A stretch of 64,000 nucleotides of DNA from Bdellovibrionota bacterium. Its GTDB lineage: Bacteria; Bdellovibrionota_C; UBA2361; JBIKWN01. The position numbers were made by a program. How positions within the stretch are numbered: position 1 is the stretch's first letter; every line of letters starts with the position of its first letter. Location: contig JBIKWN010000005.1 in NCBI GenBank assembly GCA_044356295.1, positions 33,403-97,402 on the forward strand, in the 5' to 3' direction. Shown here piece after piece: positions 23,401-29,400 of the stretch.

Positions 23401-26400
23401 GATAAGGCCCAAACTTCCTCTCTTAAGCGGTCAGGTTTAGAGACAAACTGGGAATAGGTCTCAGTTTGAAGTAAATTAATTTCAGCAAGTTCTTCACTTT
23501 TAAAAGAATTTCTAATCAACGTAGTTTTTCCAGATTGTCTGGCTCCGAATAGGAAAAAACTGTTAGATTTTGGTATGTTAAGTTCTCTTTTAAGCATGCT
23601 TTAAATATCCGTTGAATAATTAAAGCATACTTTTACTTAAAGACAAATCCCCAATCTAAGATATCAATCAGGTTGATGCATCAGTGTTTGCATAAGGAAC
23701 AAACCATGAAAGCTCGAATAGTCATCTGGCTTGGGTACGGTGATGAAGGGAAAGGGTCTTGGGTTGATTACTTGGTAAGAAAACACCAGGTCACTCAAGT
23801 TGTGCGATTCAATGGAGGTGCGCAAGCACTACACCATGTGGTGACGCTCGAGGGGCTTACCCACGGATTCGCACAATTTTCCTCTGGTACTTTGGTGCCG
23901 GGGGTTAAGACCCTCCTTTCCAAATTCATGTTGATTGAGCCAGAGAGTTTTTTTGCAGAGGCAGAGATGCTTTCCGCAAAAGGAATCGCTGATGTTGTTG
24001 AAAGAGTTATTATCAGTGAGAAATCACCGGTGATCACTCCTTTCAACAGATTACTCAATCGAATCATGGAGCGCTTTCGTGGAATAGAACGCCATGGAAG
24101 TTGCGGATTTGGAATCGGACTTACTCAAGCAGATGTAGAGTCGCTCAAAGATCGAGCACTCTATGTCAAAGATCTATCGTCATCTTCGACACTTCGGTCA
24201 AAGTTAAATGATCTGTGGAGTTTGAAATTAGATTTTGCTGATCGATTCAGAAATGAATCGACTGAAGATCTGTTTCATGCACTGCAGAACATTGACATTG
24301 AACGATATGTTGAACTGTTCACACGGTTCGCTGAAGCGGTAAACGTTGTCAGCGAAGAGGAATTTCAAAAACTGCTTCGTGAAAACGAATCAGTCTTTGA
24401 AGGTGCACAGGGTGTTATGCTCGACCAAACGTATGGAACATTTCCGTTCTGCACGAGGTCGAATACGACATTCGAAAATGCATTGATGCTTCTTCGTGAA
24501 GCTGGGTGGCAGGGTACTATTGAGAGAATTGGACTTTTGAGGGCGTATGGAACCAGGCACGGTGCTGGTCCATTCCCAACAGAAGACTCTTCACTCAACG
24601 TAGTACCTTGTCTTAATCAACTCAATGAATGGCAGGGGCAGTTCCGAACAGGATGGTTTGATGCAGTGTTAGCGCGCTATGCACTTGAATGTGTAGGCGA
24701 TGTTGATACGTTAGTCATCACCAACTTTGATCGAATTGTTTCAGAACAAACTCTCCAGATCGCAGTTCGATATGGCAGAGTGAGTGATAGTCGTTTCTTT
24801 CGTGACGGACAGATGATTCCTTTTACGGGGGGTCTTCAAGAACTTGCGGAACGAACGACAATGCTAGCCGAAGTGGAACCTGACTATCTTGATGGTGGAG
24901 TCTATTCGCAAAACGATCCTGATTCGGTAAATCGATATCTGAAGCTCCTTGAAAAGAGTATCGGACGTCGAATTAACACTGTGTCATCAAGTATCGATTG
25001 CAAAAAGATAGAGTTCGATTGATGAGATCAATTTGGCTTTATTCTTTGTATTCTTCATCAAAAAGGGAGGGGTTCTTAGCGACGGTTCTTCATTTGAGTT
25101 TATGGGATGCACTCGAGATTACTGCAAAGGTTTAAAAGTCAAAGCAGCTCTCAAAGCATCCCCTACCTTTCAGGGGACGCTCACCATAACTTATTAAAAT
25201 TTCATCACCGCGGTCTGGTAGGAGTTTAACTATTATTTTTTTTTGTAACGCGAAGGACACGAAGTACGCGAAGGAATTAATTTAATCCTTCGCGTACTTC
25301 GCGACCTTCGCGTTACAAAAAATATCTTCAATTACTTTCTACCGAGCAATAGTGACCTTTAGGGGACAGTGACCTTTAGGGGACGCTCACCTTTATAAGC
25401 CACTGTAATCACTTGGTAGGAATAAATTATCTCTAAAGATTTCAAACAGTTATAAAGGTGAGCGTCCCCAAGATTCTGATTAACTTTTTGGGCTAAGTAG
25501 TCGATCTTACGTGTGATGAGAACCCTTTAAGGGGGATCTTGCGCCTGTGGCGTATTTAAAGAGTGTGTGTGTAAAAAATGCAAAAGGAATTGCAAACATA
25601 AATGCCAATCACGATCGCTAGCAACATAGCGTCGCTTGGTGCGCAACGACAACTTGGAAAAGTTTCCGAGTCGTTAGGTAGTACCTACGAGAGGCTCTCA
25701 TCAGGAATGAGAATTAATAAAGCATCAGATGATGCTGCAGGGCTCGCAATTGCTTTAAGTCTGAATTCAGATACAAGAGTATTTACTCAAGCGGTAAGAA
25801 ACTTAAATGATGGTATATCGTATCTATCAATCGCTTCTGGAGCACTTGATGCCCTTTCAACTATAGTCATTAGGCAGAAAGAATTAGCAGAGCAATCTGC
25901 AAATGGAACTGTTGGCCTCACGCAACGAAAAAGTATTCAACAAGAGTCAGATGCATTAACAAGAGAATATGCTCGTATTACTGCAACTGCTACGTTTAAT
26001 AATCGAAAAATATACGAAGATAATTCCAATAACTTACTATCGTTACAAACAGCCTATAGTGCGATTACATATAATCTTGGGCAGTCTCTTGCTGATTATC
26101 GTGGTGATGGGACTTTCTCGAGTGGGACAACTGTGGATAGTGCTACATTTTTGGGGCAAGTAGTAATTGCGGACCTCAATAATGATGGGAAACAAGATAT
26201 TATACAGGTCAGAGGTACTGGTGGAAATTTAAGGTATCAACTCGGAAATGGTGATGGAACTTTCCAAAGTGTCATTCAGCTTAGCACTGGAAATAGTCCA
26301 ATTTCAGTATTAGTTGATGATTATAATAAAGATGGTTTCAAAGATTTTGCGATAGTAAATTCACAAGGTAATCTGCGTGTTGCTTTACAAAATAGCAATG

Positions 26401-29400
26401 GAACTTTTGGAACTTTTGTTACTTATCAAGGTCCACTTGGAGCAAACACCATGCAGTTAACATCTGGTGATTTTGATGGTGATGGTATTACTGATCTTTT
26501 TTATCAACACGGAAGTTTTACAAGTTGGGTCTTAAGAGGAAATAGTGATGGTAGCTTTCAAGCCCCAGTGACTGCAGCTAGCACCCTTTTTAATAGTACC
26601 GTAAAAGTTGCTGATTTTAATAACGATGGAAAATCTGATTTAGTTTCGATTACATCTGGAACACTAAGAACATTTACTTCGAATGGTGATGGCACATTCG
26701 CAGTAGGCGCAACAATCTTCTCTGGAATTACCGGTTCAGTTACAGCAGATGTAGGTGATTTTAACCGAGATGGAATTCAAGATATTGTTTATTCAGATAC
26801 CACATCTGGGAGGGTATATCTTGCCATTGGTAATGCAAATGGAACTTTTCAAGCTTCTATATCATTCACATCTTCAGGTGCAAACCCAGGCTCCATAACG
26901 ACTGGGGATTATAATGGAGATGGATTAGCAGACATAAGTTATCTCACAACTGGTTCAACATCGTTAAGTATTCGTTTAGGTAATGGTGACGGTAGTTTTC
27001 GGGCAGAGACATCATCAGCAATAAGTACTAATGGATCATTTGCTTTTGGGGATGTAAATAATGATGGCTCTGTTGATCTTGTTTCAGTGAGATCCGATTC
27101 CAATTCTAGTGCTCTGTATCTGCAAGGCACACGAACAGAATTTCAAGCAGACTATTTATATCTTTTAGACCAAAAGAGTGCCCGAAATGCCATCGATCAA
27201 CTTGAAACAATTTTTAATAAAATTTCTCAAGAACGTTCAATAGTCGGTGCTTCTCTTTCTAGAATTTCAGTCGGTATACAGACGCTGTCGGATGCAGCGC
27301 TACAGTATAAAGCTGCTGAATCAAGGATAAGAGATATTGATGTTGCAGAAGAATCATCAGAACTTACGAAACAATCAATTCGCCAACAAGTTGCTGCTTC
27401 GATTCTTGGACAAGCTAATCAGCAGCCATCTTTGGCGCTTAGCCTCTTACGATCTTAAGGGGGACGCTCAGATTTTATAACTTTTATTTTTTTTTGTAAC
27501 GCGAAGGACACGAAGTACGCGAAGGAATTAATTTAATCCTTCGCGTACTTCGCGACCTTCACGTTACAAAAAATATCTTCAATTATTTCTAGCATCAATC
27601 AGCCAAATATGTTTTACCCGGTAAAAGTATAAACAATTTCAAGTGACATCGGATCTAAAAGAGCCCTCATCCAATCGGGTTGTTTCTCAATCTGCATATT
27701 TAAATAATCGATAGATTCTTTCTTGGCCGGTAGTCCTTTGCGCAATCTATATCTCTGTTCCGCGGCTAACGGCTTATTACCATCAACCAGTACATTTGAC
27801 AGAGTTCTTCGAAACTGTGAAACCATGTCACTAGTACACCATGCTTGACCATGTGGTAAAAATATTGAGGCTGCTGCTGGTTCGAAGCAAGCTTCGGATA
27901 ATAAAATTTTTAGTTGAGATATTTCAAAAAGATTTAAATGAGATTCCCCCAGTATTGGACCATGTAAGACTCCTGATTTATGAAATAGATCGTATGTTAG
28001 TATTTCGAAAATCTTTTTAATTTTTCTTGGATCTATATTGCTGGATTCATCTGTGTTACGTTGCATAGCAATTCCTAAAGCTATCACCAGTAATCTACGA
28101 TGAGCAGAAAGTGTTATCTCACTGTCTTGAATAAGGCGTTTATACCAACTGGTATTATGAAAGAAACACGAGGGGTCTAGTTTTTCGATAACATTTGAAG
28201 ATAGATCGCCTAATTGTACATACTTTTCAATCAGCTTGCGTGCATGTCGAAACCCTAAATCTCCTTTACTACGATTTACAATTTGATCTGCGGCAAATGG
28301 TGAAACGTCAAATAAACTTTGTGCATATTGTAAAGGAGTAGGTGGGTTATCCTTATACTCGACAGCAGACATTATAGTTAGTGTACTTACCCGTTGGCCA
28401 AGTTCAAGATTTGAATCTGAAGCAATATCTGGTGGAAGAAAACATAGTAAGCTTTCTGAAATATTTTGACTAACGACACCAAGTTTAGATATACAAAATT
28501 GTGTTGATTGTAGTTTGCCTTGAACAGATATATGGCTTGAGCCAAGCAAGATACTTTCGGCGTGCTTAATAGTTTTCAAACCAAAAAGTCGAAGTATAAT
28601 CTCAGTATCTTTGAATCCACAAAATTCCTGGATTTCTTTTCTGAAAAGCGCGCATGCACTTCTTCTTGCCCGAGAAAGAGCCAGGCGTTTAGGATCTAAA
28701 TATAATTTCTCACTAGGATTTGGATTAAGTAATACGACCATTTTGTGAGCAAATGGATGAAATGCTACTTGGTTTAAATACCTTTCGAGACGGCTGGGGC
28801 TTAAGCTTTTGTGACCATAGATTATATCTCGTGCTGAACCAAATGTTAATTCAAAGCGAAGTGCAACTTCTCGAATTGCTGAGGCAAGCTTTGGGGCATT
28901 ATTACCATTAAAATGTCTATAAACTTCGAATGCAAATTCTTTCCTTAGCTCAACAATATCAGAAGGTAATTGCGAGGTAGAGTATTTTTTTGGTGATGAT
29001 GGTTTGGTAGGAAAGGTTTGAGGAATGCTTTGTGAGAAAATTTTAGCAAAGGTGTATCGAGCTTCCTTATCGCTACTCTCCAGCAGTTGAAGCGATAAAT
29101 TAGTTTCAAACAGATCAATTACCTCTTCACTTGAACGACTGTTACTTATACGACGACGAACTCTTGAAAGACGTGATTTATATTGAGTTAGATTTATATT
29201 TAAATGAAATGCTCCTTCTTCATCCGAAAAACCAATAATATCTAGAAAAAGAACATTTTGATCGAGCGGGTTATGTATCCCAAGTGAGGCTAAAGTTTCA
29301 CGTACAAGAGCATAATGTTCTCTGTTAAAATCAAAATTAGAAGTAGATGCATGTTTGGAACTAATTGGTTCGATTGAATCCGGAGCATCCAACTCGATTG

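Follow-up and report, generated by a model that had tools for sequence, protein, structure and literature searches.

Flagellins with a predicted seven-bladed FG-GAP propeller as outer region: a diversified set of paralogs in a Bdellovibrionota genome

Introduction

Does a flagellin gene with FG-GAP repeats in its centre still encode a filament subunit, and what could be the role of ten such genes in one genome? The question is raised by a gene within a 64,000-nt stretch of contig JBIKWN010000005.1 (a Bdellovibrionota bacterium from a lake, assembly GCA_044356295.1), called the window below. An initial annotation had described it as one of 21 flagellin genes, ten of which would carry a complete seven-bladed propeller between the D1 helices. 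We analysed the gene, its paralogs and its relatives.

Results

Identity of the window gene

The open reading frame at 25602..27458 (+ strand) consists of 618 codons and a stop codon. In the encoded protein of 618 aa, Pfam identifies Flagellin_N at residues 5-141 (1.1e-30), FG-GAP_3 in seven stretches (5.7e-55; FG-GAP is also matched) and Flagellin_C at residues 532-616 (5.2e-16). Both flagellin signatures are above their cut-offs, and no WD40 family was matched by Pfam in this protein. The NCBIfam flagellin models yield 161 bits, versus 79 bits with FlgL. For every NCBIfam flagellin model the score is below the curated cut-off by a wide margin, which is expected because of the foreign insert; still, no curated model accepts the protein.

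In an alignment of 113 homologs (A1), positions of D0/D1 either do not vary or reach a conservation of 90% or more. Residues 1-35 are also conserved, so that the start was placed at 25602, and a database gene call of 583 aa was rejected for this reason. Fragments identical to the gene were found in contigs of four more lake-water runs from other studies, showing that it is not an assembly artefact. Taken as a statement about identity and fold, the gene is almost certainly a genuine flagellin gene with intact D0/D1 helices.

Predicted structure of the inserted domain

An AlphaFold2 model based on 113 rows has a pLDDT of 89.9 and a pTM of 0.81. It contains helices at residues 7-33, 41-100, 106-129 and 524-617, with 32 strands between them; the helices flank the strands as annotated initially, and the present values replace the earlier figures. 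The N-terminal D0/D1 helices (residues 1-140; 25602..26021, + strand) are supported by Flagellin_N and the model, and the same is true for Flagellin_C and the C-terminal D1/D0 helix (residues 524-618; 27171..27455, + strand). A beta-hairpin and linker follow the N-terminal helices (residues 141-168; 26022..26105, + strand), with strands predicted at 145-150 and 153-158.

The region between linker and C-terminal helix (residues 169-514; 26106..27143, + strand) comprises the seven FG-GAP_3 stretches. In VIA-align comparisons with integrin-alpha seven-bladed propellers it reached Z values of 29-30, e.g. 29.5 for integrin alphaIIb (rmsd 2.9 Å, 324 aligned residues), and 30.1 for 4a7y; seven-bladed propellers including integrin alpha gave Z values of 28-30 across 320-340 residues. 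Profile searches matched PAL (2.2e-21), PVL (5.7e-21), integrin alphaV (7.4e-10) and also CRTAC1, and a search of PDB sequences with the single sequence returned no match. The best Foldseek matches are the solved flagellar filaments 9n59, 9au6 and 7sn4 (E ~1e-15), and the previously listed 9au6, 7sn7, 2bwr, 4up4, 9oee and CRTAC1 were all recovered. Pfam, AlphaFold2 and VIA-align agree on a complete seven-bladed FG-GAP propeller between the D1 helices, as initially proposed; in the model, a closed propeller of the integrin-alpha type stands in for the usual D2/D3 outer region. A GNGDGTF motif is absent from blade 7, and RGDGTF at residues 165-170 stands before blade 1. The linker would thus supply the motif that blade 7 is missing, and its strand would close the ring.

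Calcium-type loops and variable loops

Each of the seven blades has a DxNxDGxxD loop. Matches to D.[ND].D[GK]..D lie at residues 191, 240, 290, 338, 386, 436 and 484, i.e. with a spacing of 48-50 residues. The loops, all on the + strand and identified by the motif and alignment A1, are DLNNDGKQD (loop 1, residues 191-199; 26172..26198), DYNKDGFKD (loop 2, 240-248; 26319..26345), DFDGDGITD (loop 3, 290-298; 26469..26495), DFNNDGKSD (loop 4, 338-346; 26613..26639), DFNRDGIQD (loop 5, 386-394; 26757..26783), DYNGDGLAD (loop 6, 436-444; 26907..26933) and DVNNDGSVD (loop 7, 484-492; 27051..27077). In loop 1, conservation across A1 is 90% or more at D191, D195, G196 and D199. The motif suggests that the loops bind calcium, a meaning that we assume can be transferred from integrins.

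In the propeller alignment, the low-entropy columns are those of the DxNxDGxxD and GNGDGTF loops, and the high-entropy columns belong to the loops that join strand 2 to strand 3 and strand 4 to strand 1, which by general propeller convention are placed on the "top" face. This confinement of conservation to the calcium-type and GNGDGTF loops, with variable remaining loops, is new here.

The paralogs

Flagellin_N has 22 matches in the genome, 21 of them above the cut-off. Ten lie in frames of 585-643 aa and represent the long propeller flagellin genes, on the contigs named before. The nine long genes other than the window gene all have Flagellin_N and 5-7 FG-GAP_3 stretches. Flagellin_C is present in eight of these nine, i.e. 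in nine of ten with the window gene; the gene on contig C120 lacks it due to an in-frame TAA. The total of 21 flagellin genes has to be reduced, because FlgL had been counted among them: it is the C98 "flagellin" of 331 aa (TIGR02550, 168.8 bits, cut-off 127.2). This leaves 19-20 loci: ten long genes, eight complete short genes and two pieces at contig ends (C47, C64).

The paralogs are indeed diverged, but the previous range of 38-45% identity was slightly off: the values are 36-43% in 44 of the 45 pairs, and 55% for the tandem pair on C74. The propellers are 27-38% identical, and the median for the N-terminal core is 59%. Seven calcium-type motifs hold for the window gene, and strict counts for the ten paralogs vary from five to seven (7, 6, 6, 6, 6, 7, 6, 5, 7, 6). 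Among 53 family members from seven genomes, 28 have seven motifs, 20 have six, four have five, and one has four. Long and short flagellins form separate core lineages (support for the short clade 0.98). The trees of helical cores and propellers conflict with each other, which is also new here.

Contig C38 encodes a flagellin-derived FG-GAP protein of 689 aa that has neither a canonical D0 N-terminus nor a Flagellin_C signature.

Regulation and flagellar apparatus

A candidate sigma-28-like promoter (TTAAC-N15-GTCGAT; 25480..25505, + strand) is located 122 nt upstream of the start codon. The pattern used, [TC][TCA]AA-N14-17-[GCA][CT]CGA[TA], reflects the generally known sigma-28 consensus and has a genome-wide rate of 0.127 per 300 nt. 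It is present upstream of seven of the ten long flagellin genes and of the 689-aa gene on C38; upstream of the nine short flagellin genes it was found in no case, nor does flgL have it.

The leader contains the hairpin TGCAA(AAGGAA)TTGCA (25579..25594, + strand), a candidate CsrA site that would present GGA over the ribosome-binding site. This 16-mer has four exact copies in the genome, all located 23-29 nt upstream of long flagellin starts (C128, which is the contig of the window, C74 twice, and C8). Hairpins with a GGA loop precede 15 of 19 flagellin genes, compared with 27% of 3000 random 150-nt windows. The genes csrA and fliW are on C98, a FliA gene above the TIGR02479 cut-off is at C128:27689-28357, FlhA (865 bits) is at C128:23302-25278, and genes for FliD, FliS and FlgL are also present. 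The promoters, the GGA hairpins and csrA/fliW suggest a flagellin-type regulation, a further new aspect that is read from sequence patterns.

These results bear on the view that the long proteins are no filament subunits at all. The flagellar export signal and the helices would then serve secretion or siting, and the proteins would be FG-GAP adhesins, either free or anchored at the junction, the tip or the cell surface. The eight complete plain flagellins could make a filament alone, and the C38 protein shows that drift from filament duty occurs in the family. However, the D0/D1 positions that form the coiled-coil core are conserved in the 113 homologs, Flagellin_C is intact in nine of ten long genes, the window gene among them, and the long genes have late flagellin-type promoters and CsrA-type leaders. 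In addition, flagellins with similar or bigger outer regions do assemble, according to PMC11532411. We therefore regard a non-filament location as very improbable.

Distribution and selection

Both genus mates have full-length relatives, and so do 14 of the 21 families sampled from the order UBA2361. This agrees with the initial annotation, but the distribution is wider than this order: within the phylum, full-length copies are present in 47 of 124 genomes, and the class is also found in 10 of 401 genomes of a second phylum. One relative has at least 16 copies. Five of the eight genus-mate copies have no counterpart with more than 46% identity in this genome.

One clean ortholog pair, C8 and its genus-mate counterpart G002:C191, could be compared. 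Its synonymous sites are saturated (pS 0.68-0.79), and the propeller is 91% identical, versus 86% for the N core and 83% for the C core. This retention of the propeller despite saturation is new here. All listed changes are conservative, and dN/dS is ~0.03, a rough value because of the saturated pS. Strong propeller conservation applies to this one pair; in two other genus-mate pairs, with 60% overall identity, it is the N core (72-74%) that is better conserved than the propeller (56-58%).

The surface-exposed centres of flagellins are classical variable antigens. The paralogs might accordingly be alternative coats, one or few of them being expressed, for evasion of flagellotropic phages or grazers. 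The many diverged copies with conserved ends are compatible with this, as are the different repertoires of the genus mates, and the conflict between core and propeller trees would be expected under cassette exchange by recombination. But in the clean pair the propeller is more conserved than the core at very low dN/dS, the opposite of an arms race, and most long genes share one leader type, as seven of ten share one promoter type. An evasion repertoire is therefore an explanation to which we give little credence.

A structural role deserves more weight, although we still consider it rather unlikely. The propellers would tile the filament as a thick, calcium-stiffened coat that alters diameter, stiffness or waveform, and the paralogs would be specialised by filament position or condition, not by ligand. 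With a helical rise of ~5 Å per subunit (PMC11532411), a rough estimate gives ~2400 Å2 per subunit at a radius of ~80 Å, which is similar to the area that one face of a propeller with seven blades generally has. PMC8931119 and PMC11532411 report that outer domains modulate motility and form ordered arrays on other filaments. The separate long and short core lineages would fit different filament segments, and strong purifying selection on a propeller, as in the clean pair, suits lattice contacts and ligand binding equally. On the other hand, packing in mixed filaments predicts shared contacts, yet the propellers have mostly two motif sets in common, and a coat has no obvious need for 10-16 deeply diverged versions.

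Discussion

In the explanation that we favour, and consider probable as a whole, the paralogs would make up a set of adhesin or recognition modules carried on the filament, next to plain short flagellins with a lineage of their own. A sigma-28-type promoter would drive transcription, and CsrA/FliW would gate translation at the GGA hairpin on the ribosome-binding site. The subunit would leave the cell unfolded via the single flagellar export apparatus and polymerise by D0/D1 beneath the FliD cap; the propeller would fold extracellularly, where calcium is available, and then sit on the filament surface. Assembly into filaments, to be judged here from the genes, is quite likely. The calcium-type and GNGDGTF loops form the propeller scaffold, and the 2-3 and 4-1 loops differ wholly between paralogs but stay constant within an ortholog, so that each paralog can be read as showing its own fixed binding surface. 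Paralog-specific ligand binding is a tentative proposal that derives from the predicted fold. If the flagellum has a membrane sheath, the propeller would not be exposed to the medium.

The fold assignment, thought to be new in the initial annotation, has a precedent. Fields et al. (2024, Nat Commun 15:9500; PMC11532411) list the class among their structural clusters of outer domains as #55, "WD40-repeats". They point to cellular homologs and propose co-option. The supplement tags the representative A0A521GVE6 (623 aa) with PF13517 FG-GAP_3. In the 32 of 40 supplementary rows that the composition covers, at least 16 members, the representative among them, combine PF00669, PF00700 and PF13517 FG-GAP_3 at 545-670 aa, like the window protein; they stem from uncultured bacteria, often with several per organism, as here. 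Paenibacillus, Solidesulfovibrio, Metabacillus and chlamydiae are among the rows listed without an FG-GAP label and may have other propeller types. The propeller nature is therefore already published, while the FG-GAP and calcium-loop reading is absent from the text: the main text has no mention of FG-GAP, integrin, calcium, lectin or blades. Paralog counts, an analysis of selection and regulation are not part of the paper either.

The predicted domain resembles the integrin alpha propeller in being closed and seven-bladed (Z ~29, rmsd 2.9 Å, ~320 residues). The D-x-[DN]-x-D-G-x-x-D loops are similar to the calcium hairpins found in the blades of integrins. Integrins have a calcium loop in some blades only; here it is on all seven, and the propeller lies inside a flagellin, not atop a membrane receptor, and has no beta-subunit partner.

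Among solved structures, the top profile matches are the fungal seven-bladed GlcNAc lectins PVL, PAL and AAL2 (2bwr, 5mb4, 4tqj), at 2.2e-21 to 5.5e-19. They have a target-normalised Foldseek TM of 0.6 but an identity of just 18-21%. In VIA-align, integrins, aldos-2-ulose dehydratase and ITFG2 match the propeller equally well. The earlier term "lectin-like" thus describes a predicted resemblance to PVL/PAL in fold and profile, and is overstated as a claim of lectin activity.

As in peptidase cluster #15 (flagellinolysin type), a foreign functional domain replaces D2/D3. The flagellinolysin-type domain is a metallopeptidase of demonstrated activity, whereas the present domain is a non-catalytic repeat propeller. 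The cluster #15 domain is displayed on the filament in thousands of copies (PMC11532411).

With its many flagellin paralogs and a single flagellar export gate, the genome resembles those of bacteria with multi-flagellin filaments, such as Bdellovibrio, Caulobacter and Shewanella, the likeness here being one of genes. Bdellovibrio has six fliC genes; in contrast, the genome analysed here has 19-20 loci that fall into two core lineages, and half of these loci carry a propeller.

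Identity of the window gene

The frame at 25602..27458 of the forward strand runs for 618 codons without interruption. Pfam finds Flagellin_N at residues 5-141 (106.9 bits, cut-off 26.6) and Flagellin_C at residues 532-616 (59.2 bits, cut-off 23), and the best NCBIfam flagellin model scores 161.3 bits, compared with 79.1 for the FlgL model TIGR02550. None of the curated NCBIfam flagellin cut-offs is reached by the protein (e.g. 161 versus 365); as these models expect their own central regions, scores below the cut-off do not exclude membership of the flagellin superfamily. In Foldseek, solved flagellar filaments take the top rank for the structural model, the helices of which match the filament subunits 9n59, 9au6, 7sn4, and 9gnz with E values of 1e-13 to 1e-15. 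The public gene call (583 aa) starts 35 codons late; we place the start at 25602 because residues 1-35 are conserved across homologs.

The upstream neighbour is the adenylosuccinate synthetase gene (purA) and the surroundings are of the housekeeping type, so that the flagellin gene stands alone. An ORF of 673 aa on the reverse strand (27614-29635) lies convergent with it and matches no Pfam family (E <= 1e-4). The stretch that separates purA from the flagellin gene contains a loopless inverted repeat (25239-25322; 42-nt arms, 90% complementary) flanked by runs of T and A, possibly a bidirectional terminator. Pieces identical to the window gene were found in four other lake-water runs (contigs only), with no useful variation. 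An assembly chimera is ruled out by the ten paralogs, by hundreds of database homologs of the same architecture, and by the identical pieces in independent runs. The initial observation is real, and it was described accurately.

A seven-bladed FG-GAP propeller in place of D2/D3

The structure of the window protein was predicted with AlphaFold2 from a 113-row alignment of homologs with the same architecture (pLDDT 89.9, pTM 0.81). Helices are modelled at residues 7-33, 41-100, and 106-129 and at 524-617, and the region in between contains 32 strands. At E <= 0.01 the Pfam matches are FG-GAP_3, Flagellin_N, FG-GAP, Flagellin_C, and PliI, and no WD40 repeat family is matched at this threshold. 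FG-GAP_3 occupies seven stretches spaced 48-50 residues apart (5.7e-55). When Foldseek candidates were aligned with VIA-align, residues 169-514 reached Z scores of 28-30 against seven-bladed propellers. The integrin alphaIIb propeller is one of them (Z 29.5, rmsd 2.9 A over 324 residues of the predicted structure), and alphaV, aldos-2-ulose dehydratase, and the Photorhabdus PLL lectins are further matches. Foldseek itself pairs the insert with the fungal lectins PVL, PAL, and AAL2 (target-normalised TM 0.60-0.61) as well as with UmbA4, ITFG2 in KICSTOR, CRTAC1, and BBS9. Against PDB sequences, a 12-row profile of the insert retrieves PAL (2.2e-21), PVL (5.7e-21), and integrin alphaV (7.4e-10), together with AAL2, an esterase, CRTAC1, and YenB; phmmer with the insert as a single sequence gave no match in the same set.

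Each blade contains one copy of the motif D-x-[ND]-x-D-[GK]-x-x-D, which makes seven in total, and the motif is conserved in the 113 homologs. In integrins, loops of the type D-x-D/N-x-D-G-x-x-D bind calcium, and by this analogy the seven loops of the window propeller are candidate calcium-binding hairpins. A second motif, GNGDGTF, is absent from blade 7, and the related RGDGTF is found at residues 165-170, ahead of blade 1, which suggests that an N-terminal strand closes the ring. By sequence and prediction, the insert was therefore correctly described as a complete FG-GAP propeller of seven blades, each with a calcium-type loop, placed between the D1 helices. A complex prediction for the propeller paired with itself (residues 141-523) scored 0.00 in both runs, without controls, and is neutral on propeller-propeller contacts.

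The flagellin repertoire of the genome

The genome (2.96 Mb, 93.6% complete) contains 22 matches to Flagellin_N. The ten long flagellin frames (585-643 aa) lie on exactly the contigs that had been named. All nine long genes besides the window gene contain Flagellin_N and 5-7 FG-GAP_3 stretches, and eight of the nine contain Flagellin_C. The copy on contig C120 is cut short by a TAA, as had been reported, and homology resumes beyond the stop. Pairwise identities among the ten long genes are 36-43% for 44 of the 45 pairs, and 55% for the tandem pair on contig C74. A 331-aa entry included in the initial flagellin count is in fact FlgL (TIGR02550 above the cut-off), which leaves 10 long genes, 8 complete short genes, and 2 pieces at contig ends. 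One piece (C47:4885-5561) is N-terminal and shows no similarity to the propeller beyond D1. The other (C64:2-568) is C-terminal, with a glycine/serine-rich region followed by Flagellin_C and no FG-GAP family. The two may be parts of a single gene whose outer domain is of a third type.

FliD and FliS are encoded by one gene each. Three FHIPEP homologs are present, of which only the copy on the contig of the window gene is flagellar-like (865 bits, adjoining fliA). The existence of two flagellar systems, one with the long and one with the short flagellins, is unsupported given this single flagellar-like FHIPEP and the single FliD and FliS. The two extra FHIPEP genes (FlhA/SctV-like) are located beside genes for a YscJ/FliF-family protein, a TPR protein, and a sigma factor (C18:53174-54889) and beside Tad-pilus genes, i.e. 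T2SSF twice, T2SSE, and a ParA-like ATPase (C100:30776-32833); they may belong to a remnant or non-flagellar type III system.

A further protein of 689 aa, encoded at C38:25619-27688 (7620-9689 on the reverse strand of the extracted locus L009), carries an FG-GAP propeller between helical ends. Flagellin_N is weak (24.2 bits, below the cut-off) and Flagellin_C is absent from its Pfam matches. In profile-profile comparison the protein matches the FG-GAP flagellins with a probability of 100% over residues 45-670, the ND1 helix included. The model of this protein has a pLDDT of 66.8 and is poor at the ends, and its Foldseek matches are propellers only. Seven full-length homologs (36-92% identical) are all annotated as hypothetical. 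The gene is preceded by a sigma-28-like motif and is close to two short flagellin genes as well as to cheY and cheX. The protein looks like a flagellin derivative that is now outside the canonical family.

Distribution of propeller flagellins

The initial annotation had described a spread over order UBA2361. In a sample composed of the source genome, two genus mates, and 28 other genomes of the order, full-length matches (E <= 1e-60) are present in 18 of 31 genomes and 14 of 21 families. The class is, however, not confined to this order: 47 of 124 genomes of the phylum have a match at the same threshold (38% of the sampled species; 25 of 73 high-quality genomes, 34 of 64 genera), and ten of them fall in other orders of the class. 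In the phylum of a MAG named Bdellovibrio sp., 10 of 401 genomes match (E <= 1e-55; three candidates scored per genome). No full-length match at E <= 1e-55 was found among the four candidates scored per genome in 301 genomes of the phylum of a Myxococcota-named MAG, nor in 301 genomes of that of a Planctomycetota-named MAG; these zeros stand for "not found among those searched" rather than for absence.

In a collection of 5.8 billion proteins, 109 of the best 120 matches have the full architecture; apart from the protein's own record, identities to the window protein among these 120 do not exceed 45%. The expansion is larger in G011, a relative from the same order, which has at least 16 FG-GAP flagellin genes, some of them in head-to-tail arrays of two to four genes (C33:32962-40374, C4:18542-26060, C45:28539-34059). 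A locus search with flagellin-core patterns retrieved ordinary flagellins for the most part. Four loci were scanned with Pfam; two of these, L020 and L021, encode FG-GAP flagellins, and the other two, L042 (Agaribacterium) and L040, do not; a cultured holder was not found by this core-pattern search. Two holders are publicly named Bdellovibrionales and Bdellovibrionota. The genome of L020 also contains a frame of 2528 aa (G127:C102; same coordinates under G063) with several FG-GAP propeller-like stretches that resemble the flagellin insert, a possible cellular source of the propeller domain.

Separate histories of cores and propellers

Among the ten paralogs, identities are 51-90% (median 59) for the N core, 35-81% (median 46) for the C core, and 27-38% (median 31) for the propeller. 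Across the 113 homologs, the DxNxDGxxD and GNGDGTF loops have low column entropy, and the loops that follow strands 2 and 4 have high column entropy. By the usual convention for propellers, the conserved loops would lie on one face and the variable loops on the ligand-binding face.

For the copy on contig C8, the ortholog in the genus mate G002 is 88.7% identical. In this pair, the propeller is the most similar part (91%, versus 86% for the N core and 83% for the C core), and substitutions are conservative. This similarity of the propeller despite saturated synonymous sites (pS 0.68-0.79) indicates strong purifying selection on one particular propeller. Two other genus-mate pairs, about 60% identical, have propellers (56-58%) that are less similar than the N cores (72-74%), and for five of eight genus-mate copies the source genome contains no counterpart of more than 46% identity. 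We favour paralog-specific binding as the role of the propellers, a reading from sequence comparison, because the propellers share the scaffold alone and at least one is nearly constant between species. Its main rival is that the propellers form a purely structural coat.

The ends of the tandem C74 pair are 90% and 83% identical (dS 0.8-0.9), whereas the propellers are 37% identical with saturated dS. Trees of cores and propellers were calculated for 53 sequences from seven genomes. The core tree groups by genome, i.e. all 16 copies of G011 (support 0.97), all five of the relative G045 (1.00), and both C74 copies (0.96). In the propeller tree, the first C74 copy (C74a) instead joins its ortholog in G002 (1.00), one G045 copy joins a G002 copy (0.92), and 15 G011 copies form a clade with four copies of the relative G010 (0.97), with one G011 copy outside. 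The conflict implies either that cores have been homogenised within genomes or that propeller cassettes move between cores. Such shuffling of cassettes would fit a repertoire of antigens as an alternative role, but the purifying selection does not. The short flagellin cores of the source genome (seven of the 8 complete genes, all but C93) separate from the long ones as a clade (0.98), consistent with a single origin of the propeller insertion.

Putative regulation of the long flagellin genes

A sigma-28-like motif, TTAA-N16-[GC][CT]CGA[TA], is found 84-165 nt upstream of seven of the ten long genes (at 25480-25505 for the window gene) and upstream of none of nine short genes; its genome-wide rate is 0.127 per 300 nt. 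The gene for FliA is on the same contig as the window gene. A hairpin at 25579-25594, TGCAA(AAGGAA)TTGCA, covers the ribosome-binding site of the window gene, and this 16-mer has four copies in the genome, each just upstream of a long flagellin gene. Hairpins with GGA in the loop precede 15 of 19 flagellin genes, compared with 27% of random windows, and csrA and fliW adjoin flgL on contig C98. In Bacillus subtilis a circuit of CsrA, FliW, and flagellin is known, and the arrangement found here resembles it by analogy.

A dispersed repeat with the core GGGGACGCTCACC (consensus about AGGGGACGCTCACCTTTATAA) has 30 copies in the genome, versus about 0.1 expected by chance. Copies in the window are at 25173-25185, 25379-25391 (forward strand), and 25457-25469 (reverse strand). 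Inverted pairs 66-79 nt apart are common, and for eight of the 30 copies a long flagellin gene is no more than 3 kb away (C128, the contig of the window gene, and C123, C113, and C120). The repeat may represent a REP- or MITE-like element, or else a promoter or a site for a regulator.

Discussion

The window protein is a flagellin that has a calcium-loop propeller in place of D2/D3 and is predicted to polymerise. Judging from sequence and models, the chain would most likely be exported unfolded and polymerise by D0/D1; the propeller would fold after export, outside the cell, and be displayed at the filament surface, with each paralog contributing its own distinct, conserved surface. A less probable rival to this reading is that the long proteins are secreted without assembly. 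Filaments show thousands of copies of any replacement of D2/D3, and an integrin-like propeller would thus give a surface of very high avidity.

A more far-reaching reading, which we regard as rather improbable as a whole, combines folding on exit, a near-continuous binding coat, and shuffled cassettes on homogenised cores. In the cytoplasm, where calcium is low, the seven calcium loops would prevent the propeller from folding and thereby let it pass the narrow flagellar channel, and the propeller would shut outside the cell. Propellers would tile the filament as a near-continuous coat of binding sites, and shuffling of cassettes among homogenised cores would provide this little-known lineage, labelled Bdellovibrionota, with 10-16 or more recognition surfaces on its filaments as a combinatorial set. 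If true, the flagellum would be a motor and, in addition, a programmable, adhesive device for probing prey, particles, or glycans.

The fold assignment was presented as new in the initial annotation; the class is already catalogued, and its propeller nature is in print. Fields et al. 2024 (PMC11532411) grouped 16,948 outer regions of AlphaFold flagellin models into 682 clusters. Cluster 55, which the paper labels "WD40-repeats", has 40 members in the supplementary table, and its representative A0A521GVE6 and 15 others are tagged PF13517 FG-GAP_3. These 16 entries, of 545-670 aa, are from uncultured bacteria, with several entries per organism, and the window protein matches them in domain set (Flagellin_N, Flagellin_C, and FG-GAP_3) and in length. 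The class has received two sentences in print, and the main text does not use the words FG-GAP, integrin, lectin, calcium, or blade. In the same table, cluster 55 includes, without an FG-GAP label, flagellins of the cultured bacteria Paenibacillus odorifer, Metabacillus indicus, Solidesulfovibrio magneticus RS-1, Desulfovibrio spp., and marine chlamydiae. The sole member of cluster 636 is a protein of Fuerstiella marisgermanici with Flagellin_N and FG-GAP (799 aa). As cluster 55 includes cultured bacteria, there is material for experiments, and these holders and Fuerstiella are possible entry points.

The ESM Atlas contains automatically named Flagellin_N, FG-GAP, and Flagellin_C clusters with 91, 103, 66, and 94 members, and JGI names many of these proteins "flagellin". 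Other descriptions of a class of FG-GAP, propeller, or WD40 flagellins were not found in the literature outside subscription journals. Unpublished for the class are the FG-GAP assignment, the calcium-type loops, and the results on spread, evolution, and regulation. The main value lies in the corrected fold family (FG-GAP with a calcium-type loop per blade, rather than WD40), the sizes of the expansions (10 copies in this genome, at least 16 in G011), and the modular evolution, i.e. separate core and propeller histories and evidence that individual propellers are conserved, not racing. The ideas raised are calcium-dependent folding after export, paralog-specific ligands, and control by CsrA/FliW.

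Cluster 55 is labelled WD40 by Fields et al., whereas the window protein is FG-GAP by Pfam, without WD40. With the PVL-type propeller lectins, the window propeller shares the predicted fold and a sequence kinship detectable by profile; the protein would accordingly be called PVL-like in modelled fold and in profile, rather than filed as a lectin.
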